Source: Escherichia phage vB_VIPECOOM03
Strand: one strand, 5' to 3'
Length of the DNA: 64,000 nt
Sequence record: OQ721911
Below, piece after piece: positions 1-48,965 of this stretch (positions are counted from its first letter, which is position 1; each line of letters starts with the position of its first letter). The translations under genes were made by a program, and so were the position numbers. The notes under the pieces were generated by a model. That model worked only from the letters and a program-made list of their open reading frames with translations. It was not told the DNA's origin and did no database searches.

Positions 1-2010
<2,010 letters not shown>

Positions 2011-2037
2011 ATTAAAGCATATTAAAGAGGATTAAAA

Positions 2038-4017
2038 ATGACTTTATTATCTCCGGGCATTGAGCTCAAAGAAACTACGGTTCAAAGCACCGTGGTTAAT
2101 AACTCTACTGGTACAGCAGCTCTGGCCGGTAAATTCCAGTGGGGTCCTGCTTTTCAAATTAAACAGGTTACAAATGAAGTAGATTTAGTTAATACTTTTG
2201 GTCAACCTACAGCTGAAACTGCTGACTATTTTATGTCTGCAATGAATTTCTTACAATACGGAAATGATTTGCGAGTTGTGCGTGCTGTCGATAGAGATAC
2301 CGCTAAAAACTCATCTCCAATTGCCGGTAATATTGAATACACTATTTCTACCCCAGGTAGTAACTACGCGGTTGGAGATAAAATCACGGTTAAGTATGTT
2401 TCAGAAGACATTGAAACAGAATGTAAAGTTACCGAAGTAGATGCTGATGGAAAAATTAAGAAAATTAATATTCCTACCGCAAAAATTATCGCTAAAGCGA
2501 AAGAAGTAGGCGAATATCCAGAATTAGGTTCTAACTGGACCGCGGAAATTTCTTCGTCTTCCTCTGGTTTAGCTGCGGTAATAACTCTTGGAAAAATTAT
2601 TACTGATTCTGGTATTTTATTAGCTGAAATTGAAAATGCCGAAGCTGCTATGACAGCGGTTGAATTTCAAACAAATCTCGAAAAATATGGAATTCCAGGA
2701 GTAGTAGCTCTTTATCCAGGCGAGTTGGGCGATAAAATCGAAATTGAAATCGTATCTAAAGCTGACTACGCAAAAGGGGCTTCTGCATTACTTCCAATTT
2801 ATCCAGGTGGCGGAACCCGCGCATCTACTGCCAAGGCAGTGTTTGGATATGGACCACAAACTGATTCACAATACGCTATTATAGTTCGTCGCAATGATGC
2901 TATTGTTCAAAGTATTGTTCTTTCAACAAAGCGTGGTGAAAAAGACATTTACGATAGTAACATCTATATTGATGACTTTTTCGCAAAAGGTGGTTCAGAA
3001 TATATTTTCGCAACTGCACAAAACTGGCCAGAAGGCTTCTCTGGAATTTTAACTCTATCTGGTGGATTATCATCAAATGCTGAAGTAACAGCAGGAGATT
3101 TGATGGAAGCCTGGGACTTCTTTGCTGACCGTGAATCTGTTGACGTTCAGTTGTTTATTGCGGGTTCTTGTGCCGGTGAATCTTTAGAAACAGCATCTAC
3201 TGTCCAAAAACACGTCGTTTCAATTGGGGATGCTCGCCAAGATTGCTTAGTATTGTGCTCACCACCGCGTGAAACTGTTGTTGGAATTCCTGTAACTCGT
3301 GCTGTCGATAACTTAGTCAATTGGAGAACTGCAACTGGTTCATACACTGATAATAACTTTAATATCAGTTCAACCTACGCAGCAATTGATGGTAACTACA
3401 AGTATCAGTATGACAAATATAATGATGTGAATCGTTGGGTTCCATTAGCAGCTGATATTGCTGGTTTATGCGCAAGAACTGATAACGTTTCTCAGACTTG
3501 GATGTCTCCAGCTGGTTATAATCGTGGTCAGATTCTTAACGTTATTAAACTTGCTATTGAAACTCGTCAGGCTCAGCGCGACCGTTTATATCAAGAAGCT
3601 ATCAACCCAGTAACTGGTACAGGTGGTGATGGTTACGTATTGTATGGTGATAAAACAGCTACTTCTGTTCCTTCTCCATTTGATCGTATTAACGTTCGTC
3701 GTCTGTTTAATATGTTGAAAACGAATATCGGACGTAGTTCAAAATATCGTTTGTTCGAATTAAACAACGCGTTTACTCGTTCATCGTTCCGCACAGAAAC
3801 TTCCCAGTACTTGCAGGGAATTAAAGCTCTCGGTGGAATTTATGAATATCGTGTAGTTTGCGATACAACAAATAACACTCCGTCAGTAATTGATAGAAAT
3901 GAGTTTGTTGCAACATTCTACATTCAACCGGCGCGCAGTATAAATTATATTACTTTGAATTTCGTCGCAACTGCTACTGGTGCAGATTTCGATGAATTAA
4001 CTGGTCTTGCAGGTTAA
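2038..4017 (+). CDS. 18: Tail sheath protein gp18
   Basis: 659-aa ORF, same length as T4 gp18; position between gp17 and gp19; good RBS (AAAGAGGA). Confidence 0.93.
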   Translation: MTLLSPGIELKETTVQSTVVNNSTGTAALAGKFQWGPAFQIKQVTNEVDLVNTFGQPTAETADYFMSAMNFLQYGNDLRVVRAVDRDTAKNSSPIAGNIEYTISTPGSNYAVGDKITVKYVSEDIETECKVTEVDADGKIKKINIPTAKIIAKAKEVGEYPELGSNWTAEISSSSSGLAAVITLGKIITDSGILLAEIENAEAAMTAVEFQTNLEKYGIPGVVALYPGELGDKIEIEIVSKADYAKGASALLPIYPGGGTRASTAKAVFGYGPQTDSQYAIIVRRNDAIVQSIVLSTKRGEKDIYDSNIYIDDFFAKGGSEYIFATAQNWPEGFSGILTLSGGLSSNAEVTAGDLMEAWDFFADRESVDVQLFIAGSCAGESLETASTVQKHVVSIGDARQDCLVLCSPPRETVVGIPVTRAVDNLVNWRTATGSYTDNNFNISSTYAAIDGNYKYQYDKYNDVNRWVPLAADIAGLCARTDNVSQTWMSPAGYNRGQILNVIKLAIETRQAQRDRLYQEAINPVTGTGGDGYVLYGDKTATSVPSPFDRINVRRLFNMLKTNIGRSSKYRLFELNNAFTRSSFRTETSQYLQGIKALGGIYEYRVVCDTTNNTPSVIDRNEFVATFYIQPARSINYITLNFVATATGADFDELTGLAG

Positions 4018-22847: not shown

Positions 22848-23942
22848 ATGGCAATTGTTAAAGAAATAACTGCTGATTTAATTAAAAAGTCCGGTGAGAA
22901 AATTTCAGCCGGACAGAGTACTAAATCAGAAGTAGCAACTAAAACATACACTGCCCAGTTTCCAACTGGGCGTGCTAGTGGTAATGACACTACAGGGGAC
23001 TTCCAGGTAACAGATCTATATAAGAATGGATTATTATTTACTGCATACAATATGTCATCTAGGGATTCTGGAAGTCTTAGATCGATGAGATCTAACTACT
23101 CTTCTTCATCTTCGAGTATTTTACGTACAGCCAGAAACACTATCAGTAATACAGTATCAAAACTGTCAAATGGATTAATATCAGATAATAATTCAGGAAC
23201 AATAAGTAAAGCACCTGTTGCAAATATTCTTTTACCAAGATCTAAATCCGATGTTGATACATCATCACATAGATTTAATGATGTTCAAGAAAGTCTTATC
23301 AGTAGAGGCGGAGGTACTGCTACTGGTGTGTTAAGTAATATTGCTTCAACTGCAGTATTTGGGGCACTGGAAAGTATAACGCAAGGTATAATGGCTGATA
23401 ATAATGAACAGATTTATACGACAGCCAGAAGTATGTATGGCGGTGCTGAGAATAGAACTAAAGTGTTTACATGGGATTTGACGCCACGTTCAACAGAAGA
23501 TTTGATGGCTATTATTAATATCTATCAATATTTTAACTATTTTTCTTATGGTGAAACGGGCAAATCTCAATATGCTGCTGAAATAAAGGGGTATTTAGAT
23601 GATTGGTATCGTTCTACATTAATTGAACCTTTATCTCCGGAAGACGCAGCTAAAAATAAAACACTATTTGAGAAAATGACATCGAGTTTAACTAACGTTC
23701 TAGTAGTTTCAAACCCGACAATTTGGATGGTGAAAAACTTTGGTGCAACATCTAAGTTTGATGGAAAAACGGAAATATTTGGCCCATGCCAAATACAGAG
23801 CATCAGATTTGATAAAACACCTAATGGTAACTTTAACGGATTAGCTATTGCTCCAAACCTCCCTAGTACATTTACTCTTGAGATTACTATGAGAGAAATT
23901 ATCACGTTAAACCGTGCTTCTTTATATGCGGGGACTTTTTAA
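22848..23942 (+). CDS. 48: Baseplate tail tube cap gp48
   Basis: 364-aa ORF, same size and position as T4 gp48. Confidence 0.9.
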   Translation: MAIVKEITADLIKKSGEKISAGQSTKSEVATKTYTAQFPTGRASGNDTTGDFQVTDLYKNGLLFTAYNMSSRDSGSLRSMRSNYSSSSSSILRTARNTISNTVSKLSNGLISDNNSGTISKAPVANILLPRSKSDVDTSSHRFNDVQESLISRGGGTATGVLSNIASTAVFGALESITQGIMADNNEQIYTTARSMYGGAENRTKVFTWDLTPRSTEDLMAIINIYQYFNYFSYGETGKSQYAAEIKGYLDDWYRSTLIEPLSPEDAAKNKTLFEKMTSSLTNVLVVSNPTIWMVKNFGATSKFDGKTEIFGPCQIQSIRFDKTPNGNFNGLAIAPNLPSTFTLEITMREIITLNRASLYAGTF

Positions 23943-25257: not shown

Positions 25258-25287
25258 ACTATAACACAACACGAGGGACTTGTAAAC
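25258..25287 (-). promoter_or_regulatory. Early-type promoter-like element (GTTTAC -35, 18-bp spacer, TATAGT -10), copy 1 of a repeated element
   Basis: Minus-strand GTTTACAAGTCCCTCGTGTTGTGTTATAGT; about 90 percent identical over ~55 bp to the element at 41000-41054. Confidence 0.5.
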
Positions 25288-27344
25288 TACATTTTGAACT
25301 TTTTAGACATTCCGTTGATGTTAACCAAAGAAGCCAAGATTTGAGAAACTTCGTTTTCCTCTTCTTTTGATTCTTCTACAAGGAATTGATTAAATCCAGC
25401 CATTGGACGAACTTCACCAGTTTCCATCAGATGGTCGCCATCATATACCGATTCTTCTAATTGTTCAGAAGGAGGAACGATTGTGCCTTCGACTAGATAC
25501 TTATTATAAGCAGTTTCTTTCATCATGTACGTACTCACTTTATTAATCTTCAGTAGAATTCCACGTGGTAGAATAATTTCAGCTTCTGATGGAAATCCTG
25601 ATAAATGACCTGGAACGATAACTTTGATTCGCTCAGCTCCTTTAATTACCATACCAACGCTAGTTTCAGCATCTTCATTCGCATAAGCAGAGCGACTGCC
25701 CATATGCATCAAATCTTCTGCGTCAACTGAACCTTCTCCTTCACCAGAAAATACTGCACCGGAATCATCTAGAGCCATATAGTTTTTACCATACTCACCG
25801 AAGATATTTGGTTTAAGCGATGTGGATACGAAGTTCTTGAAATAAAACATTTTATTTTCAATATTATGGCGTAAAGTTTTGAAAGTAACTTCTTGTCCAC
25901 GGTAAAGTGTAGTTCCTGGAGGAAGAACTGAACCTTTAGCAAAGGCAGAATCCATTGTCTCGATGTGTTTAATAGCTCGTTCCATATATTCTTCACGGGT
26001 AGAATCTGGTTTACCTAAAAGGAACGAGTTCATTTCAACATATGAATCTGCACAATAATCTTCAATTACATCAGATTCAGCTTGAGTCAGTCCTTTTGGA
26101 GTTACTTCGGTGCTTGCGTATTCATATGCCTGGGCGGCAGATTCATTAATCAATTTATAAATGCCATTCATGACAAATTGAATAATAGCTACCTTTTCAT
26201 CTGGCGTGGCTTTAGAACCTTTAACTAAATCATTAACAATTTTCTTAATAACATCAAAGCTGTTAGAAATATTAATATCAGAAAGATCACTTAAAATTTT
26301 ATCAGTTTTATAATCAAAAAATTCTTTATTCTTTAAATATTCTTGAGAACCTTGATATGTTATATCGCTCTGTAATTTAATAGATGGATCACGTAAACGT
26401 GCATGAGCCAATGCAATATGATTTCGGAAGCTTTCTAGTTCATAATCGTTAGATTTAAAACGAGAAGCGCTTCTCATACCACCTATAGCTCCTTTGCTGA
26501 AGTTTGAACCAATTTGAATAACGCCAGAGTTCATTGATCCTTCTGCTTTATATACCGGAACTTTAGATTCAAACTCTTGATATTTCTTAGCAGCGAAGCT
26601 ATCGCCCTGAAGTGAAGCATCAACAGTAGAATATTGAGCTTGTGCTGCTAATCGACGACTAATTTTAGTTTTCTGAATAACAGCTTGATCCGTGCGCTTA
26701 TCATTTTCTAAAGCAATAGAAGCAGCAACAGCAACAGCTTTAGGAACAGCATTACCCGTTTTAACGTCTACATAAACATCACCAACCTTTGATTCAACTT
26801 TTGTGAATAACTCAGTTGAAATAGGAGGTACACCTGGAATGTCTTCTAAATTGGCATTTTTACGGTAAACCATAATATATGCATACTTTTTATCGTAATC
26901 CCAGATTTCCTTTAAAAGAACATATCGACCTGCTCCTTTAGTACGTACTAAACGGTCGGCAATAACTTGCATTTGACGAGCTGCGCCGTTTGTTTTACTC
27001 TTTAGTACGCGGAATAAGCATGCATCAATTTTATACTGTTTCATTGTTTGAAGAGCAGTATCAAAAACCGCATTAATGACACCAATTGGGTTTCCACCCA
27101 AGTTTTTAAGTTTAACTAATGATAGTTTTTCATTGACACCTATCATTACGATATGCATCATTTTATCGCCTGGCTTAACGTTTTTATTTGTATCACCACC
27201 AGAGGTGTATGTACAAAATCTAAATCCAGGAAGCACACTTTCTTCACCGGCTTGAATAGCAAAAATTTGAGGTATTTTATGCTTAGGATTTAAGTTAACA
27301 ACCGGCGCCGAAGCGCCGTCAAATAATTCTGTAATAAGTTCCAT
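25287..27344 (-). CDS. Alt-like ADP-ribosyltransferase paralog (R-S-ExE motifs)
   Basis: 685-aa ORF; N-terminus MELITELFDG... closely parallels the adjacent alt; C-terminal region has YRGQ, FVSTSL and EAEIILPRG motifs. Confidence 0.85.
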   Translation of the reverse strand: MELITELFDGASAPVVNLNPKHKIPQIFAIQAGEESVLPGFRFCTYTSGGDTNKNVKPGDKMMHIVMIGVNEKLSLVKLKNLGGNPIGVINAVFDTALQTMKQYKIDACLFRVLKSKTNGAARQMQVIADRLVRTKGAGRYVLLKEIWDYDKKYAYIMVYRKNANLEDIPGVPPISTELFTKVESKVGDVYVDVKTGNAVPKAVAVAASIALENDKRTDQAVIQKTKISRRLAAQAQYSTVDASLQGDSFAAKKYQEFESKVPVYKAEGSMNSGVIQIGSNFSKGAIGGMRSASRFKSNDYELESFRNHIALAHARLRDPSIKLQSDITYQGSQEYLKNKEFFDYKTDKILSDLSDINISNSFDVIKKIVNDLVKGSKATPDEKVAIIQFVMNGIYKLINESAAQAYEYASTEVTPKGLTQAESDVIEDYCADSYVEMNSFLLGKPDSTREEYMERAIKHIETMDSAFAKGSVLPPGTTLYRGQEVTFKTLRHNIENKMFYFKNFVSTSLKPNIFGEYGKNYMALDDSGAVFSGEGEGSVDAEDLMHMGSRSAYANEDAETSVGMVIKGAERIKVIVPGHLSGFPSEAEIILPRGILLKINKVSTYMMKETAYNKYLVEGTIVPPSEQLEESVYDGDHLMETGEVRPMAGFNQFLVEESKEEENEVSQILASLVNINGMSKKFKM

Positions 27345-27347
27345 GAT

Positions 27348-29444
27348 TTATCCTTGAACGAACTTGTAAGGCATGTTTGTAATATCTATGCAAGACGCAA
27401 TAATTCCAAGAGATGATTCTGCTTTCTGTTTAACATTTGATGAAACAAATGATGCAAAGTCAACTCTGTCTTCTATTTCAATATCACCTGTCATTGCAAC
27501 CAATTCACCAGTTTCCATTAAATGGTCTCCATCATAGATTACCGATTCGGTGAGTTCTTCCGTAGTCATAACTTCAGCTTGAATGAGTTTTGTATTATTA
27601 GATGTTGTTCCGTCATTATTGGAAGCATCAGTTATTTTATTAACTTTGACCATCAATCCGCGTGGTAAAATAACTTCAGCTTCAGTTGCTATTCCGAGAC
27701 TTCCTGGATATACAACATTAACTTTATGAGCTCCATCAATTGCCCATCCTATTTGAACTTTAACGTATTCAGGATTTTCTTTATACGCTCTTATTTCGTT
27801 TGGATTAATAGTTATTCCTTCTTCATTTTTATCAACTGTTAATTCATTGCGAGCTTCTGGTTCTAAAAGACCAATACCAGCATGCGTAATTCCAAAACGT
27901 CCAAAAATGATAGGAGTTAAAGAAGTAGATACAAAATTTCTGAAATAGAACACTTTATTTTTAACTAGTGCTTCGTATATAGGAGCAGTCATACTTTGAG
28001 CACGATAAACTGTAATGCCTTCTGGTATACGGTCACCATTTTCAAAGGCTGAATCTAAATTATTTATCGCAGATTCAATTTCTTTTTCACTCATTACATC
28101 ATATCGTTCTGGATTATAGCGTCCTAAAAGAAGATTATTGATGTCAGTATATCCTGATCCACAATACTCTCTAATGCCGCGCTTTTGCGATGGAGTATAT
28201 TTAGAACCATCACGGGCAATAGTAATATCAATCATTGGACCTGCACCAATTCCAGAAAAGCTATAAATCATTCGTTTGAGGAATTTAGTTTTTGCTGCGT
28301 TCCAGGAATTTTTAGTTATTTCTTCCCAGACTTCATCTGGCTGTCCTTTACGGGTTTTATTATGTTTATCAAGCCAAGTATCTTTATATTCTTCAAAGAA
28401 TTTATTAATAGCTGCTGCATACTTCTCTAAACATTTTATTGAAGTAGTTGGTTCATTTTTGATCGCGTTAAAAATTACATCTTTAATTTTTTCAGAAACT
28501 TCATTAACCTCACTTTTTGAAAAGAATTTATAGTCATAGTGAAGTTCATCTGCAGTCCCTTCGGCAATAATTTTTGCTGCCTTAGTTTTAGAAGCTAATG
28601 AATTAATTCCAAGTTTCATTTCTTCCGCTTCGGGAATTAAAGGAGCTGTAGCAGGTTTATTGAAATTAGCTGCAGTAGATTCATACTTCTGGAATAATTC
28701 ACTTTCAAATCTAGAAGATTCCAATGACTGACTTTGTGCAATTGCTCTACGGGAAATTTTAACTTTAACTATTACAGCTTGGTCAGAACGTTTATCGTTT
28801 TCTTGCGCAATAGATGCTGCAATTGCCTCATTTTTAGTTACTTGAGCTCCAGTATCTTTATTGATATAAACATCGCCGACCTTCGATTCAACTTTAGTAA
28901 AGAGCTCGGTACTAATTTCTGGAACTCCTGGAATGTCTTCTAGTGATACATTTTTGCGATGTATAAGAATATATGCATACTTTTTATCGTAATCCCAGAG
29001 TTCCTTAAGAAGGACGTATCTGCCACCTGAACGACTACGGATAAGTCTATCAGCAATAACTTGAATTTGTCGAGCTTGACCAGCAGTTTTAGACTTAAGA
29101 ATACGGAGCATACAGGCATCAATTTTATACTGACGCATCGTCTGCATTGCAACAGTAAAAACTGAATTGATATAATTAATTGGGCTTGGACCGAGACCTT
29201 TTAATTTAGCAATTGAACCTTTAGCAGTTAATGTAAAAGGAACAATATGCATCATTTTATCGCCCATTTTTAAATCGCGATTAGTATCACCTCCAGATGT
29301 ATAGGTACATAAACGAAAGCCTGGTTGTTCAATTGCGTCATCAACATGAACTGAAAAAATTTGCGGTATTTTCTTCTTTGGATTTAAGTTTGTAATCGGA
29401 AGAGTAGTATCTTCGTCAAATAATTCTGTAATGAGTTCCATCAT
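27348..29444 (-). CDS. alt: Alt ADP-ribosyltransferase (capsid-packaged, modifies host RNA polymerase)
   Basis: 698-aa ORF; N-terminus MELITELFDEDTTLPITNL... as remembered for T4 Alt; ART motifs YRAQ, FVSTSL, EAEVILPRG; ATG at 29441 is an alternative start. Confidence 0.9.
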   Translation of the reverse strand: MMELITELFDEDTTLPITNLNPKKKIPQIFSVHVDDAIEQPGFRLCTYTSGGDTNRDLKMGDKMMHIVPFTLTAKGSIAKLKGLGPSPINYINSVFTVAMQTMRQYKIDACMLRILKSKTAGQARQIQVIADRLIRSRSGGRYVLLKELWDYDKKYAYILIHRKNVSLEDIPGVPEISTELFTKVESKVGDVYINKDTGAQVTKNEAIAASIAQENDKRSDQAVIVKVKISRRAIAQSQSLESSRFESELFQKYESTAANFNKPATAPLIPEAEEMKLGINSLASKTKAAKIIAEGTADELHYDYKFFSKSEVNEVSEKIKDVIFNAIKNEPTTSIKCLEKYAAAINKFFEEYKDTWLDKHNKTRKGQPDEVWEEITKNSWNAAKTKFLKRMIYSFSGIGAGPMIDITIARDGSKYTPSQKRGIREYCGSGYTDINNLLLGRYNPERYDVMSEKEIESAINNLDSAFENGDRIPEGITVYRAQSMTAPIYEALVKNKVFYFRNFVSTSLTPIIFGRFGITHAGIGLLEPEARNELTVDKNEEGITINPNEIRAYKENPEYVKVQIGWAIDGAHKVNVVYPGSLGIATEAEVILPRGLMVKVNKITDASNNDGTTSNNTKLIQAEVMTTEELTESVIYDGDHLMETGELVAMTGDIEIEDRVDFASFVSSNVKQKAESSLGIIASCIDITNMPYKFVQG

Positions 29445-36916: not shown

Positions 36917-37149
36917 AGTACGCCATACACCCTTTGTGCTTCAACTAATCCATCAAAATCCAATTTGAGATGCGTTATTTGGTCACCATCACCTGGATTC
37001 ACAATTACTAATACTGAACGAGGAGTTTCGGTAATAACACGAACCGATGTTTCTGGAAATCGTTCAGAAACCTTATTTACTAATTCCTGAGCAAATAGTT
37101 TAACTTTTTCTTGGAATTCTTTAACAGTAATTGGTTTTTCGCTTAGCAT
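36913..37149 (-). CDS. Hypothetical protein (cd.x cluster)
   Basis: 78-aa ORF. Confidence 0.55.
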   Translation of the reverse strand: MLSEKPITVKEFQEKVKLFAQELVNKVSERFPETSVRVITETPRSVLVIVNPGDGDQITHLKLDFDGLVEAQRVYGVL

Positions 37150-37670
37150 GTTGATCCCAGCTCCTTACTTTCAACGTTTTTAACTAATTTGACAGAAACT
37201 AATTCAGCATCTTGAGTAATCATTACCGGACCTTCTTCATACTCTTCGAGATATTCTAGAGCTTTCTTTTTAGCTTCTTCCTTCGTATCAGTTTGAGCAT
37301 AGATATAAAACATACAACCAGTAATACCTACTACTTTCCACTTAATTTCTTTATCAGCTTTAATTTCAAATTTACTGACAGAGTCATCTTTTTGAACTTC
37401 TTCGAAAAAAGAATATTCTAACATATAAGCAATTGAAAATAACGGGCTAACTTTATAGGATTCGCCCATTACATCAACAGCTTTATACCAGCAATCATCA
37501 ATTTCACGTTTAATGCTAATAACATTTTTCGCAGGATCTATTTTTACTTTAAATGAATTTTCCCCAATAAACTGGGCAATTCGTTTATTAGCCCCACAGG
37601 TTTCATTAAAAATATCTTTATATCCAGCTTTAAAGCGATAAACCTTATCTTCTTCAAACCATTCGCTCAT
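37143..37670 (-). CDS. Hypothetical protein (cd.x cluster)
   Basis: 175-aa ORF. Confidence 0.6.
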   Translation of the reverse strand: MSEWFEEDKVYRFKAGYKDIFNETCGANKRIAQFIGENSFKVKIDPAKNVISIKREIDDCWYKAVDVMGESYKVSPLFSIAYMLEYSFFEEVQKDDSVSKFEIKADKEIKWKVVGITGCMFYIYAQTDTKEEAKKKALEYLEEYEEGPVMITQDAELVSVKLVKNVESKELGSTC

Positions 37671-38401: not shown

Positions 38402-39622
<1,221 letters not shown>

Positions 39623-39626
<4 letters not shown>

Positions 39627-39853
39627 CTATTTTTCTCAACCAATGATTGAATATAATCATGCAGGTCTTTAGATGCTTTACCCCACTTATTTTGATATTC
39701 ATTTTTAAGATTAGCACGTGATTGAGCTAATAAAACATCATTAGTTGGAGGTAAAGATTCTAATCGTTGAATCTGGCGACCATAAATCATTGCAGCCATT
39801 TCGGATTCATAAATCAATCCTTTAAGATGTTCAAATTGATGCCATGAAATCAT
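39623..39853 (-). CDS. Hypothetical protein
   Basis: 76-aa ORF. Confidence 0.55.
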
Positions 39854-40149
39854 TTACATTTATCCTCTTTTAACTCTTGACGATAATAACATATCATAGT
39901 TTTCTGGTCATGCACATATCGTTTTACATCATTAAGCCAAATACGAAATTCCTGGGAATCTTCAAATGGCATACCGACCCAAGCTTTACCATCGATAACT
40001 TTAACTTGCCAAGATAGTTTAGCTTCATCATATGACTTTATCTGCACAGGCCAATTAGGATGAACTGTTTCTTTCTTTACTTCTAGAGGCTTTGTCGAAC
40101 AACCAACTAGAAGACCAATAGATAATATTACTGCTGATAGTTTAATCAT
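39850..40149 (-). CDS. Outer-membrane spanin (o-spanin lipoprotein; pseT.2-type)
   Basis: 99-aa ORF with signal peptide and lipobox (SIGLLVGC); adjacent to i-spanin. Confidence 0.75.
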   Translation of the reverse strand: MIKLSAVILSIGLLVGCSTKPLEVKKETVHPNWPVQIKSYDEAKLSWQVKVIDGKAWVGMPFEDSQEFRIWLNDVKRYVHDQKTMICYYRQELKEDKCK

Positions 40150-40499
40150 TTAGAAAGGTCCTGGATGTCTTCTGCAAACTTGTTGAAGGAGTTGTTGATT
40201 TGTTTTTCAACCAATCCTGGTTTATGAGCCACCACATCCGCCTTCTTTGCGTCTTTGCGCAGTTTTTCATTTTCACGCTCAATAGCAGCAATTGCCTCAC
40301 GATTTTTATTATTCATCGCATCAATATAATTATATTGAATTTTTAAATCATTTAATGCTAAAGCGTTTTCATTGGCCGTTTTTGTAATTTCTACAACAGA
40401 CGTTTCTAATCTTTCAATTTTACTTTTTAAAATTAAAGAAGTTCCGCCCAATGCAATTACAATTAATAACAAACCCGCTGTCGTATTACTTAATTGCAT
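40146..40499 (-). CDS. Inner-membrane spanin (i-spanin; pseT.3-type)
   Basis: 117-aa ORF with N-terminal transmembrane helix (AGLLLIVIALGGTSLIL) followed by coiled-coil-like periplasmic domain. Confidence 0.75.
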   Translation of the reverse strand: MQLSNTTAGLLLIVIALGGTSLILKSKIERLETSVVEITKTANENALALNDLKIQYNYIDAMNNKNREAIAAIERENEKLRKDAKKADVVAHKPGLVEKQINNSFNKFAEDIQDLSK

Positions 40500-40996
40500 A
40501 AAGTTTTAATAACCTCTACAATATCGTCTTGAGAAAGACCGTTAATTAAAATATGATGTTCAGCCGGAGATTTAGAAATTTTAAAGCATGCCTCAACATC
40601 TTCTGCCATATCTGATGCACTACGATTTGGATTACTAATTCCAAGACGATGTTTTCCCGTTAAAGGATTAACGATGATATAGCATTTACAGTTATTAATA
40701 TGAACATTAGGTTGAGTCTGATTAATGAACACATCACAATCATATTTTGCAAGCTGATTTTCTAAAAAGACTTTCATCTCCTCAACCGCATCAGGAAGCA
40801 TATCACGGGCTTGCTCAAGACGACGATTTCGATATTCTTTAATGGTCGTTTTCCGCTTGACTTGCTTAGCTAAATCTTTCTTAAGATCGGTGATATATCC
40901 AACTCGACGATTTCCTTTAAATACAGAAATCCCATCTGTAGTATCACCGTATGCTTCAACGACCATTTCAGTAGTAATAAGCTGTAAATCCATCAT
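40490..40996 (-). CDS. alc: Alc, inhibitor of host transcription on cytosine-containing DNA
   Basis: 167/168-aa ORF; MDLQLITTEMVVEAYGDTTDG... recognised as T4 Alc; ATG at 40993 is the alternative start. Confidence 0.9.
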   Translation of the reverse strand: MMDLQLITTEMVVEAYGDTTDGISVFKGNRRVGYITDLKKDLAKQVKRKTTIKEYRNRRLEQARDMLPDAVEEMKVFLENQLAKYDCDVFINQTQPNVHINNCKCYIIVNPLTGKHRLGISNPNRSASDMAEDVEACFKISKSPAEHHILINGLSQDDIVEVIKTLCN

Positions 40997-41024
40997 AAAG
41001 TCCTCATGTTATGTCAGTAAGACT

Positions 41025-41054
41025 ACTGTAACACAACACGAGGGACTTGTAAAC
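41025..41054 (-). promoter_or_regulatory. Early-type promoter-like element (GTTTAC -35, 18-bp spacer, TACAGT -10), copy 2 of repeated element
   Basis: About 90 percent identical over ~55 bp to the element upstream of the ORF at 24936-25226, including the RBS CATGAGGA. Confidence 0.5.
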
Positions 41055-41057
41055 AGC

Positions 41058-42645
<1,588 letters not shown>

Positions 42646-42652
42646 AATAAAA

Positions 42653-42668
42653 TGGGCCTTACGGCCCA
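42653..42668 (-). terminator. Terminator hairpin downstream of nrdB (TGGGCC-ttac-GGCCCA)
   Basis: GC stem-loop; on the minus strand it is followed by TTTTATT. Confidence 0.6.
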
Positions 42669-42672
42669 CTCC

Positions 42673-43851
42673 TTAAAAATATTTTTTAAAACTCATCATA
42701 ACTTTATCATCAACATCATTATCAATCTGTGCTACAAGGTAAGATGACAGTTCTACTTCTTGCGGCGCTGATTGAACATTATCAGAATTAAGGTATTCAC
42801 GAATCCAAGGATACGGATGTTTAACCGGAGCATCGGTAATTGGGCATGGAAGACCGCACTGTTTCATACGAGATACAGTTAAGTAATCAATAAAGCTCCA
42901 CATGCTATTTGTATTTAATCCAGGAACATCACCATCTTTAAATAAATGAACTGCCCAGTCTTTTTCTTGACGGTTAACTTCCATGAAAATATCAACTGCT
43001 TCTTGTTCACACTCTTGAGCAATTTTAACCCATTCATCACCGTCAGTGCCAAGTTGAAGTTGACGAATAATGTACTGGGTACCTTTAAGGTGAAGCTGTT
43101 CATCACGTGCAATGAACTTCATAATCTTAGCATTACCTTCCATGATTTCCATATTTTTGTGGAAGTTAAAGGTACATGCGAAAGATACGTAAAAACGAAT
43201 AGCTTCCAGGGCATTGATTACATGGAGACAGAGATAAAGGGACTTCATTAAAGCACGTTTAGCTTCGGCTTCTTGTTTAATAGCTCGGTTTAAACGAAAG
43301 ACAGCATCAGGAGATTCTTTAGCTAGTTCTACAAATTCTTTAGCATTTTCCCATTCACGGGTTTTAATCAGAACATCATCATAATAACGCCCAATGGATT
43401 CAGCACGTTTCATAATAGCTTCATCTAATACAATTTCATCAAATACCTTCGATGGATCAGTATAAAGATTTCGCATGATATGAGTATATGAACGACTGTG
43501 AATAGTTTCACTAAAAGTCCATGTAGCAACCCATGTATCAAGGCTTGGATCTGAAATTAATGACATAAGTACAGCAGACGGTGCACGACCCTGAATGCTA
43601 TCCAAAAGTGATTGATACTTCAGGTTATTAGTAAAAATATCTTGCTGATACTGAGGAAGCTTGTTAAATTGTGCAGCATCCATCATTAAGTTTACTTCTT
43701 CAGGACGCCAGAAAAATGATAATTGCTTTTCGGTTAAATCTTCAAAAACTTTATGACGTTGAATATCATAACGCGCAATACCAAGACCTGAACCAAAAAA
43801 CATAGGTTCTTTTAAAACATCGACTGGATTTGTATTAAAAACTGTGCTCAT
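42673..43851 (-). CDS. nrdB: Ribonucleotide reductase small subunit (uninterrupted, no intron)
   Basis: 392-aa continuous ORF with R2 di-iron/tyrosyl radical features; T4 nrdB carries a group I intron, this copy does not. Confidence 0.93.
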   Translation of the reverse strand: MSTVFNTNPVDVLKEPMFFGSGLGIARYDIQRHKVFEDLTEKQLSFFWRPEEVNLMMDAAQFNKLPQYQQDIFTNNLKYQSLLDSIQGRAPSAVLMSLISDPSLDTWVATWTFSETIHSRSYTHIMRNLYTDPSKVFDEIVLDEAIMKRAESIGRYYDDVLIKTREWENAKEFVELAKESPDAVFRLNRAIKQEAEAKRALMKSLYLCLHVINALEAIRFYVSFACTFNFHKNMEIMEGNAKIMKFIARDEQLHLKGTQYIIRQLQLGTDGDEWVKIAQECEQEAVDIFMEVNRQEKDWAVHLFKDGDVPGLNTNSMWSFIDYLTVSRMKQCGLPCPITDAPVKHPYPWIREYLNSDNVQSAPQEVELSSYLVAQIDNDVDDKVMMSFKKYF

Positions 43852-43902
43852 AAATTTTCCGCTTAGTTAATAGTTGGTGACTCGTCCATGAGTCAAATTA
43901 TA

Positions 43903-46167
43903 TCATAATTTACAGGATGAACAATCTTCAGCTTTTGGAGTTTCTATTTCGTAATCATCAGTACCGGAACCATCACGAGTATTATGATAATAGAAGTTTT
44001 TAATTCCATAATACCATCCATATAGCATGTCATCAATCATTATTGACATTGGAACCTTTCCTTTTGGAAAAATCTGTGGGTCATAATATGTATTCGCTGA
44101 AGCTGATTGACATACCCATTTCAGCATAATAGCTACCTGCGTAAGATAAGGTTTATTACCTTTCTTAGCTAATTTCCATGTATAATCATAGAGGTCTATG
44201 TTATGCTCAATATTGGGCACGACTTGATTAAAGGAACCCTCTTTTGATTCTTTAACAGAGACTGGTCCACGTGGAGGCTCGATACCGTTTGTACTGTTAG
44301 AAACTTGGGAAGATGACTCACATGGCATAAGTGCTGATAATGTGCTATTACGGATGCCAAAGAGCTTAAGGTCTTCCCGCAGCGACGACCAGTCACAAAC
44401 GTATTTTGGAGCTGCGATTTGGTCAATCTTTTTATTGTACCAGTCGATAGGTAATTCGCCTCGAGACCAACGAGTGTCTGAATAATATTCGCAAGGTCCT
44501 TTTTCTTTGGCGAGCTTAATGGATGCTTTAATGAGTCCATACTGTAATCTCTCAAACAATTCATGAGTCAAATCGTTAGCGTCTTCATATGAAGCAAAGT
44601 TAGAAGCTAACCATGCAGCATAGTTAGTAACACCTACACCAAGATTTCGACGCTTTTTAGCTTTTTCTGCTTCAGGAACTGGATATCCTTGGTAATCCAA
44701 AAGATTATCAAGAGCACGAACTTGAACTTCTGCTAATTCATTAATTTTATCTTGGTCTTGCCAATCGAAGTTATCTAACACAAATGCAGATAACGTACAC
44801 AATCCAATTTCAGCATCAGGACCATTCACATCATTAGTTGGAATAGCAATTTCACAACACAAGTTACTCTGACGAATAGGTGCCTTTTCACGAATAAATG
44901 GAGTATAGTTATTCGTATTATCAATGAACTGTACATAAATCCTTGCTGTTCCTGATCGTTCAGTCATTAGCAATTCAAACAGTTCACGGGCTTTAATACG
45001 CTTTTTACGAATATTAGGGTCTTTTTCTGCGGCTTCATATAATTCACGGAAACGATCTTGGTCTTTAAAATAAGAATAATAAAGCTCGCCACCCATTTCA
45101 TGCGGACTGAACAAAGTAATGTAGTCGTTCTTTCCAAAACGTTCCATCATTAGGTCATTCAGCTGAACGCCATAATCCATATGACGGATACGGTTTTCTT
45201 CTACACCTTTGTTATTTTTCAAAACGAGAAGATTTTCAACTTCCAAATGCCAAATAGGATAATAAGCAGTAGCAGCGCCGCCACGAATTCCGCCCTGTGA
45301 ACATGATTTAACAGCAGTCTGAAAATGTTTCCAAAAAGGAATAACACCAGTATGACGCACTTCACCTGTGCCAATCTTAGAACCTTCGGCACGAATCATA
45401 CCAACGTTAATACCGATTCCGGCTCGTTTAGAAATATACTCAACAATTGAAGCAGAAGCCTTATTGATAGACTTCAGCGAATCGCCTGCCTCAATAACGA
45501 CGCATGAACTAAACTGCCGAGTTGGAGTACGACATCCAGCCATAATAGGAGTAGGCAGTGAAATCTGTCGAGTAGATACTGCTTCATAAAAACGAATAAC
45601 ATGTTTTAATCTGTCAACAGGTTCATCTTGATGCAATGCCATTCCAATAGTCATAAATGCAAACTGTGGAGTTTCATAAATTTGACCAGTGGTTTTATCT
45701 TTAACGAGATATTTTTCTTTTAATTGCATCGCCCCGGAATAAGTAAATTCCATATCCCGCTCATGCTTAATTTTTGATTCTAAAAATGTAATTTCTTCTG
45801 CAGAATATTTTGACAACAATTCAGGGTCATATTTACCTTCATTTACACAGTAAGAAATATGGTCAATAAATGAACGGGGCTCATACTGTCCGTACACATG
45901 TTTACGAAGAGCAAACATTAAACAACGTGCAGCTACGTATTGATAATCAGGCTCTTCAACCGAAATAGAATTCGCAGCAGCCTTAATTACAATAGTTTGA
46001 ATGTCATCAGTGGTCATTCCATCACGGAGATATGATTTAATATTTTCATATAATTCATAAGGATCTACAGATGTTCCTTCAGCTGCCCAAGATAAAACTT
46101 TAATAATTTTTTGCGGGTCAAAGCTCTGAGAAACACCACTACTTTTGATAACATTAATTAATTGCAT
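43903..46167 (-). CDS. nrdA: Ribonucleotide reductase large subunit
   Basis: 754-aa ORF, same length as T4 NrdA; ATP-cone N-terminus and class I RNR catalytic region. Confidence 0.95.
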   Translation of the reverse strand: MQLINVIKSSGVSQSFDPQKIIKVLSWAAEGTSVDPYELYENIKSYLRDGMTTDDIQTIVIKAAANSISVEEPDYQYVAARCLMFALRKHVYGQYEPRSFIDHISYCVNEGKYDPELLSKYSAEEITFLESKIKHERDMEFTYSGAMQLKEKYLVKDKTTGQIYETPQFAFMTIGMALHQDEPVDRLKHVIRFYEAVSTRQISLPTPIMAGCRTPTRQFSSCVVIEAGDSLKSINKASASIVEYISKRAGIGINVGMIRAEGSKIGTGEVRHTGVIPFWKHFQTAVKSCSQGGIRGGAATAYYPIWHLEVENLLVLKNNKGVEENRIRHMDYGVQLNDLMMERFGKNDYITLFSPHEMGGELYYSYFKDQDRFRELYEAAEKDPNIRKKRIKARELFELLMTERSGTARIYVQFIDNTNNYTPFIREKAPIRQSNLCCEIAIPTNDVNGPDAEIGLCTLSAFVLDNFDWQDQDKINELAEVQVRALDNLLDYQGYPVPEAEKAKKRRNLGVGVTNYAAWLASNFASYEDANDLTHELFERLQYGLIKASIKLAKEKGPCEYYSDTRWSRGELPIDWYNKKIDQIAAPKYVCDWSSLREDLKLFGIRNSTLSALMPCESSSQVSNSTNGIEPPRGPVSVKESKEGSFNQVVPNIEHNIDLYDYTWKLAKKGNKPYLTQVAIMLKWVCQSASANTYYDPQIFPKGKVPMSIMIDDMLYGWYYGIKNFYYHNTRDGSGTDDYEIETPKAEDCSSCKL

Positions 46168-46484
46168 AAGTCCTCAACTTGAAAATCGTCTTTAAACAAT
46201 CGGTTAACTATATGAGCTATTATATCACCATGACACGGCTTTGGTTTACATGTGCATCCTAGCCTCATTCCACGTAAAGGCTCTAAATGTGCTTTAGTTA
46301 TTTCTCCGGATTTAATTCGACGTATAAAATCTTTTTTGAATAATTCAATGGCAGCCTCCCGGCTGCCAGCATCTTTACCGACGTAATTTCCCCAAAATGT
46401 ACCACGGTGAATATTAACATCAAAGTCGGATTTATATTTATTCACTACCTGGCATAGACGGCCCGCGCGGCGATAATTCGTCAT
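46158..46484 (-). CDS. DUF4326-like protein (nrdA.1 position)
   Basis: 108-aa ORF; pattern WGN...REAAIELF...LRG..LGCTC.P.PCHGD fits my recollection of the DUF4326 signature. Confidence 0.55.
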
Positions 46485-46701
46485 ATTGTTTTTCCGTTAA
46501 AACAGTAATATCATAGTAACAATCTGAAGAAGTTTTAACTGTAGAAATTTTATTATCAAAATACTCACGAGTCATTTTATGAGTATAATATTTTTTGCCG
46601 TAAATGATAATAGGCTGATTTGGTCCTGGAACTTCTAACTCACTTGGGTTAGGAAGTGTAAAAAGAACTACACCAGAAGTATCTTTAAATCGTAAAATCA
46701 T
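46438..46701 (-). CDS. Hypothetical protein (nrdA.2 position)
   Basis: 87-aa ORF. Confidence 0.55.
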
Positions 46702-46719
46702 ATATCCTCACAATTAAAA

Positions 46720-47579
46720 TTACACCGCCATTTTTCCTTTCAAGACACCATGGGACTGATAATCTTTGAGAACGAAATCTCGCGCTGTCATATATTCAGT
46801 TAACCAATACATTTGAGTTTCAGTATCGCATTGACTGAATCCATTAGGCCAATTAATACTGAGTTTGCACAGGTCCATAGGGGTTCTATTTAATATCTCT
46901 TTGCATTGCTCAATATGGTTAGAATAAATGTGTGTATTGCCGCCCGAGAATATCAAATCGCCCGGAACTAGTTCACACATGTCAGCAACAATATGTAAGA
47001 GAGCAGCATAGCTCGCGATGTTAAATGGAAGACCGAGGAAAACATCTACCGAGCGTTGATACCATTGGAGGTCAAGGTATCCGTTACGAACATTAAACTG
47101 ATAGAACATGTGACAAGGTGGTAATGCCATTTGCTTAAGTTCAGCTGGATTCCACGCTGACACAATTTGACGCCTATCGTTTGGAAATGTTTTAATACGA
47201 TTAACAACTTCTACAATTTGGTCTACACCGCCAAAATCACGCCATTGTTTTCCGTAAATTGGACCAAGTTCACCACTATGATATCCTAAATCTTTTGCTT
47301 GATTTTCGTAATTTTCATCCCAAATCGTTTTTCCAGCAATTAAAGATCCATGAGTACGTTTACGTAGATCATTTACGTTAGTACTTCCTGACAGAAACCA
47401 TAGTAACTCAGAAATACATGCATTCCAAGCGAGCTTCTTAGTCGTTACTGCAGGAAAACCTTTAGTTAAATCCCAGCGTAATTTAGTACCGAACAAAGCA
47501 ATTGTTCCTGTGCCTGTTCGGTCATCGGTTTCGTAGCCATTTTCTAGAATATCTTTAATTAAAAATTGGTATTGTTGCA

Positions 47580-47580
<1 letters not shown>
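46720..47580 (-). CDS. td: Thymidylate synthase (uninterrupted, no intron)
   Basis: ORF-track start at 47592 is a TTG; ATG at 47580 gives 286 aa (T4 TS length) with active-site PCH and conserved DLGP.YG.QWR; continuous, unlike intron-containing T4 td. Confidence 0.93.
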
Positions 47581-48605
<1,025 letters not shown>

Positions 48606-48621
<16 letters not shown>

Positions 48622-48965
48622 TGAAAAGGGCCAGGAACATATCCGCTAGAGTTAACCATTTTAACTAAAGTTGCCATTCCTCTATTAACTGCTTGTGCGA
48701 TTTCATCAAAAATTTTGTCACTACCACCGTAAAAGTCATTAAAAAATTCTAACGCGTTCTCCCGAACTTTTAATTTACGGCCGACAATTTCGCCTACAGT
48801 AAATTCTCTTCCGCAAAATCCAGTGTAAATTGTAATTACACCCGTTAACTGACTTTCACGGGAATTTATGTCGTGTGATAAATTAATAAAAGCCGTCCCA
48901 CGCGCGGTTTTAAGTTGGCAACGAATTTTTACTTGAGTAATTCCAGTTACATGAATGTCAGACAT
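48606..48965 (-). CDS. Hypothetical protein (frd.2 position)
   Basis: 119-aa ORF. Confidence 0.55.

Follow-up and report, generated by a model that had tools for sequence, protein, structure and literature searches.

Uninterrupted td and nrdB genes and an empty nrdA-nrdB spacer in Escherichia phage vB_VIPECOOM03

Layout and coding sequences of the td-nrdA-nrdB cluster

We examined the deoxynucleotide-synthesis genes of Escherichia phage vB_VIPECOOM03 (sequence record OQ721911) in a stretch of 64,000 nucleotides, here called the window, in which the genes for thymidylate synthase (td) and for the large and small subunits of ribonucleotide reductase (nrdA and nrdB) lie without the introns and the homing endonuclease gene mobE found at this locus in phage T4. 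The window shares 100% identity with Escherichia phage vB_VIPECOOM01 (OQ721909.1, where it corresponds to positions 96001-160000 and where the same genes are annotated) and with its twin OQ721910.1; vB_VIPECOOM01 is a Tequatrovirus (species Tequatrovirus vipecoom) with E. coli ATCC 25922 as its isolation host. The cluster runs entirely on the minus strand (42235-48364), in the order frd, an open reading frame (ORF) of 68 amino acids, td, nrdA.2, nrdA.1, nrdA, nrdB and denA (see Table 1).

The td and nrdB genes are each encoded by a single ORF, in agreement with an earlier reading of the window made from the letters alone (the sequence-only reading). Specifically, the td product (286 amino acids from the ATG at 47580) gave a single full-length match to the Pfam family Thymidylat_synt (PF00303; profile positions 1-266 of 266, E=1.8e-94), and its length is that of T2 td and of T4 td after splicing. 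NrdB (392 amino acids) likewise gave one continuous match to Ribonuc_red_sm (PF00268; profile positions 9-271 of 281, E=1.2e-36). ORFs of these lengths with such Pfam scores are far beyond what is expected by chance. By contrast, T4 (reference NC_000866) has td and nrdB annotated as two-piece joined coding sequences: its 1017-nt td intron carries I-TevI, its 598-nt nrdB intron carries a defective I-TevIII remnant, and its nrdA-nrdB interval holds 696 bp with nrdB.1 and mobE. All three segments are absent from the window, although the flanking genes are the same in both phages.

Alignment against the T4 genes (beyond 134 kb of the T4 genome, from annotation tables and an alignment tool) showed that the window sequence is continuous over both T4 exon junctions, with no inserted segment and with the insertion points in conserved sequence. 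The position of the T4 td intron corresponds to the boundary between td nt 549 and 550 (47032/47031; CCTCGGT followed by CTTCCATTT), and that of the T4 nrdB intron to the boundary between nrdB nt 676 and 677 (43176/43175; TTTCGCAT followed by GTACCTTTAAC). The peptides encoded at these junctions are identical to those of T4, namely VFLG followed by LPFN in td and FYVSFAC in nrdB. The nrdB position was taken from the alignment, and the td position from an ungapped comparison of the window td with a T4 td that we had spliced by hand; a MAFFT alignment of the window td with the intron-containing T4 td was discarded, as it misplaced exon 2 owing to the divergence of this exon.

A scan of positions 42200-48400 with the Rfam model of group I introns (Intron_gpI, RF00028) returned no match at E<=1. 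This is the outcome of a second scan: a negative result at the gathering threshold was uninformative, because the T4 control was missed as well, and the region was therefore rescanned at an E-value threshold, at which the model did find both T4 introns (E=9e-8 and E=2e-6).

Neither nrdB.1 nor mobE is present between nrdA and nrdB in the window, and the spacer, previously put at about 50 bp, is exactly 51 bp long from the nrdA stop codon to the nrdB ATG. There is no ORF inside this spacer, which is homologous to that of T2, and a hairpin within it (TGACTC..GAGTCA) was no better than in shuffled sequence (z=-0.76). In phages that lack mobE, a middle promoter has been placed at the 3' end of nrdA or within the spacer (PMC2790892); our scan for sigma-70 promoters and terminators over positions 42500-48500 remained at chance level (26 found vs. 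23.1 ± 4.0 expected; mean and standard deviation). We found no evidence that contradicts this structural description, and the intron-free, mobE-less state of the td-nrdA-nrdB locus is thus confirmed.

Table 1. Genes of the cluster and counterparts of known homing sites (positions in the window)
Feature	Position	Strand	Remarks
frd (dihydrofolate reductase)	47783..48364	-	First gene of the cluster; Pfam DHFR_1, E=3.5e-19; annotated in OQ721909.1
68-aa ORF, function unknown, between frd and td	47580..47786	-	phrog_9550, E=5e-45; no Pfam match
td (thymidylate synthase), 286 aa, uninterrupted	46720..47580	-	ATG at 47580; 861 nt including stop
I-TevI 39-bp homing site counterpart (td nt 523-561)	47020..47058	-	Insertion point 47032/47031
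CAACG I-TevI cleavage motif (td nt 523-527)	47054..47058	-	Native motif, kept at -27..-23
nrdA.2 homologue (DUF5496)	46438..46701	-	ORF; T4 annotation
nrdA.1 homologue (DUF4326)	46158..46484	-	ORF; T4 annotation
nrdA (ribonucleotide reductase large subunit), 754 aa	43903..46167	-	Pfam ATP-cone, Ribonuc_red_lgN, Ribonuc_red_lgC
nrdA-nrdB spacer, 51 bp	43852..43902	-	nrdA stop to nrdB ATG; slot of T4 mobE and nrdB.1, empty here
nrdB (ribonucleotide reductase small subunit), 392 aa, single ORF	42673..43851	-	Same length as T2 nrdB
MobE-dependent nick counterpart (T2 nrdB nt 122-126)	43726..43730	-	Nick mapping from PMC2790892
I-TevIII homing region counterpart (nrdB nt 652-696)	43156..43200	-	Insertion point 43176/43175
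denA (endonuclease II)	42235..42645	-	GIY-YIG domain, Pfam E=2e-6; not a homing endonuclease

Comparison with T2 and other T4 relatives

The layout of the cluster is that of T2 (AP018813.1, positions 133346-139691, covering frd-td-nrdA-nrdB-denA). Gene order and strand are the same, td and nrdB have the same lengths in both phages (861 nt and 1179 nt, the latter encoding 392 amino acids), mobE and nrdB.1 are missing from both, and the T2 spacer, also of 51 bp, differs from that of the window at 3 positions. More broadly, T2 is collinear with window positions 39002-47581, with no rearrangement and 92.9% identity. The two phages nevertheless differ in the ORF between frd and td (115 amino acids and phrog_1928 in T2 vs. 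68 amino acids and phrog_9550 in the window), in a DUF7247 ORF that only the window has upstream of frd, in an internal patch of NrdB (approximately amino acids 172-200) and in td itself, for which T2 carries another allele; the nucleotide identity between the two td genes is only 76% because the 3' third of the window gene is divergent.

These allelic differences also extend to T4. The td 3' third (46720..46890, approximately nt 690-861) has 30-50% DNA identity to both T4 and T2 td, and amino acids 184-286 of the td protein are 57% identical to T4. A td allele with at least 95% identity to that of the window is rare: about 22 records have it, one of them the laboratory-evolved T4_ev240. T4, T2 and the window phage each have their own, very different allele of the internal NrdB patch (approximately 43250..43340), which explains a length difference of 392 vs. 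388 amino acids.

To place the locus among T4 relatives, we searched a phage collection with 120-bp queries that had the respective junction at their centre, such that any insertion would break the match in two. The resulting counts are approximate and include duplicate RefSeq and GenBank entries, but their direction is clear. The intron-free td junction was found in 623 records (sensitive blastn), the intron-free nrdB junction in at least 344, and the compact nrdA-nrdB junction in 372, T2 included (at 95% identity or more). As for the T4 elements, the full-length td intron was found in 197 records, the nrdB intron in 118, and the full T4-type segment with nrdB.1 and mobE in 20 of the 143 records with any match to it.

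The slot between nrdA and nrdB holds variable cargo among these relatives, with the window and T2 representing its empty state. One close relative is Enterobacteria phage P922 (OR999189.1): its locus is 95% identical to that of the window, its td and nrdB genes are intron-free, and it shares the 68-aa ORF and the host strain, but a 243-aa MobE-like gene with HNH and NUMOD1 domains (positions 1852..2583 of the stretch examined) takes the place of the 51-bp spacer. In T4_ev240 (LR597657.1), the slot is occupied by a gene for a 263-aa D12-class N6-adenine DNA methyltransferase (positions 1888..2679 of the stretch examined), and RB3 and T6 carry other MobE-like genes there, as judged by partial DNA match and annotation.

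A second variable slot lies at the junction between frd and td, as its contents differ between the window, T4 and T2/T4_ev240. The 68-aa ORF of the window, the stop codon of which overlaps the td ATG, is absent from T4 and T2; T4 frd directly overlaps td, and T2 and T4_ev240 have the unrelated 115-aa ORF at this place. Upstream of frd, an 81-aa ORF (phrog_3183; 48364..48609, minus strand) has a counterpart in T2 but not in T4, and the DUF7247 ORF (119 amino acids; 48606..48965, minus strand) is found in neither. We considered whether the 68-aa ORF and the other ORFs absent from T4 might be endonuclease remnants and rejected this idea, given that they have no Pfam nuclease domain and belong to PHROG families of unknown function.

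Homing target sites and the origin of the empty positions

Taken together, the cluster very probably represents the deoxynucleotide-synthesis genes of a T-even phage in their uninterrupted, T2-type form, which is the common state among T4 relatives, and a potential recipient for homing. With both genes read from contiguous coding sequence, RNA splicing is unnecessary, and nrdB follows nrdA across the conserved 51-bp spacer. With its insertion points intact, the locus could receive T4-type elements: a double-strand break or nick at the target would be followed by repair copied from a co-infecting phage that bears the intron or the endonuclease gene. Susceptibility to cutting and homing is what we infer from the sequence of the target sites, and the proposal that the locus is a naive homing target is therefore best described as plausible; intact junctions, a preserved I-TevI motif and the co-conversion reported for T4 x T2 crosses (PMC2790892) speak for it, while the evidence for MobE and I-TevIII is equivocal.

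For I-TevI, the known requirement is CNNNG, with the C placed 27 nt and the G 23 nt before the insertion point (PMC5009752, PMC2988022), and both critical bases are retained in the CAACG of the window. Across the homing site we found 6 mismatches in 39 positions relative to spliced T4 (at -19, -6, -4, +3, +6 and +12), all of them silent; T2 also has 6. The mismatch rate within the site (15%) does not exceed that across the remainder of td nt 1-690 (18%), and hence nothing suggests selected resistance.

The other two enzymes give a less clear picture. The region around the mapped MobE-dependent nick is T2-like: over nrdB nt 100-150, the window departs from T2 at 2 positions and from T4 at 18. 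I-TevIII cuts 14 and 16 bp upstream of its insertion point (PMC1865063), and the corresponding region of the window has 5 mismatches to T4 in 45 positions (at -14, -5, -2, +17 and +20), whereas T2 differs upstream only at -2. Substitutions in this target are only marginally enriched over background.

Several of these observations weigh against the locus being an easy recipient. First, P922 has a MobE-like gene while its nrdB nt 81-160 are still T2-type and identical to T2; since this phage has both, a T2-like nick region is no reliable sign of sensitivity, at least to the P922 variant of the enzyme. Second, one of the differences from T4 falls on the I-TevIII cut position -14, and together with those at -5 and -2 it leaves the status of this site uncertain. 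Third, the DNA of td exon 2 shares only 58% identity with T4 (vs. 85% for exon 1), a divergence that could make repair from a T4 donor less efficient or require a long conversion tract.

The empty positions could also be secondary, meaning that an ancestor of the phage had the introns, a mobE-family gene or both and then lost them precisely, in a cycle of invasion, degeneration and loss. Such a life-cycle model has been discussed (PMC2988022), and P922, with its closely similar locus and shared host strain, has a MobE-like gene exactly in the slot, meaning that presence and absence vary within the group. However, the 51-bp spacer is kept at 95% identity or more in all 372 records with the compact junction, and as it is replaced in P922, precise reversion would need the spacer to be rebuilt. 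Moreover, the exon flanks of td differ widely from the T4 type and show no sign of a co-conversion tract, and no remnant of an intron or endonuclease was detected in the Rfam scan of 42200-48400 or in protein searches of the whole window. We thus regard secondary loss as unlikely.

Another explanation is that the locus is refractory rather than naive, i.e., that silent changes in the target sites and the divergent td exon 2 block homing by I-TevI, I-TevIII or MobE, and that the positions are still empty for this reason. The substitutions described above, including that at the I-TevIII cut position, and the low identity of exon 2 fit this view, as does the observation that the window-type td allele is intron-free in all close matches. 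On the other hand, the I-TevI site is no more diverged than its surroundings and keeps the bases that matter for cleavage, and I-TevI is documented to tolerate sequence changes (PMC5009752). Furthermore, the T2 site is equally mismatched, yet I-TevI-driven co-conversion from the td cleavage site is reported for T4 x T2 crosses in the part of PMC2790892 that cites its reference 6. A refractory locus accordingly appears quite improbable to us. There is a similarly slim chance that the rare td allele, with its divergent 3' third and the 6 silent I-TevI site substitutions, and the nrdB allele, with its I-TevIII differences at -14, -5 and -2, are natural homing-resistant variants, in which case this sub-lineage would lack introns because selection has acted against their invasion.

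Finally, the notion that the missing introns are an assembly or annotation artefact can be dismissed as next to impossible, with no point found in its support and against it the two independent records OQ721909 and OQ721910 (100% identical over the stretch), the same junctions in hundreds of independently sequenced phages, and intact reading frames.

Homing endonuclease genes, other loci and the T-even norm

The uninterrupted T2-type cluster sits within a window that is poor in homing endonuclease genes relative to T4, as had been suggested for the phage from the sequence alone. The six endonuclease genes that T4 carries over the corresponding interval (segD, segE, I-TevIII, mobE, I-TevI and segG) are all absent from the 64-kb window. 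The T4 segments of 789 bp and 635 bp that contain segD and segE are missing, and the spacers at the T4 positions of segD, segE and segG measure 50-99 bp (99 bp for that between genes 32 and 59). Searches of the whole window with eight endonuclease protein queries gave a best tblastn hit of E=0.32 and no phmmer match, and the sole GIY-YIG-like motif among its six-frame ORFs was that of DenA.

Outside the window, nrdD of the source genome is uninterrupted, and a single homing endonuclease gene is annotated there (239 amino acids, GIY-YIG-like by eye, with no Pfam match). Also outside the window, an ORF of 160 amino acids lies in the tRNA cluster at the position of T4 segB (positions 22930..23412 of the OQ721909.1 stretch examined); it is annotated as hypothetical and is a candidate that looks HNH-like by eye only, with no Pfam match at E<=0.01.

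Few or no homing endonuclease genes are likewise found in T2, RB14, RB15, RB18, RB26 and RB69. According to published counts, T4 has 15 such genes, T6 has 11, RB3 has 8, RB14, RB15 and RB18 have 2 each, T2 has 1, and RB26 and RB69 have none (PMC2993671, Table 5), and T4 with its 15 genes has been described as an outlier among its relatives (PMC2988022). The source phage belongs to a different species (Tequatrovirus vipecoom) from these relatives.

Two further loci of the window differ from T4. Two full-length genes for Alt-like ADP-ribosyltransferases lie in tandem (25287..27344 and 27348..29441, minus strand), where T4 has one alt gene and the short remnants alt.-1 and alt.-2. In addition, a 175-aa ORF (37143..37670, minus strand; phrog_3710, no Pfam match) occupies approximately 520 bp between cd.2 and cd.3 that are missing in T4.

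The sequence-only reading had gone on to propose that the locus marks a distinct lineage, which our comparisons do not bear out: classical T2 has the same architecture, as do most T4-like records. That T-even phages vary in whether they carry the td and nrdB introns and mobE has been studied for years, and published T4 x T2 crosses on homing and marker exclusion use T2 as their standard recipient. The literature already presents T4 as an endonuclease-rich oddity and most of its relatives as endonuclease-poor (PMC2988022; PMC2993671). Given that an uninterrupted form is normal and T4 the exception, the absence of these elements is no lineage marker, and the uninterrupted T2-type td-nrdA-nrdB cluster is an ordinary, long-described and already known arrangement. 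Apart from helping correct annotation, the finding has little significance; what is gained is a corrected view of which state is the norm and which the exception, and this phage could serve as one further recipient for homing experiments.

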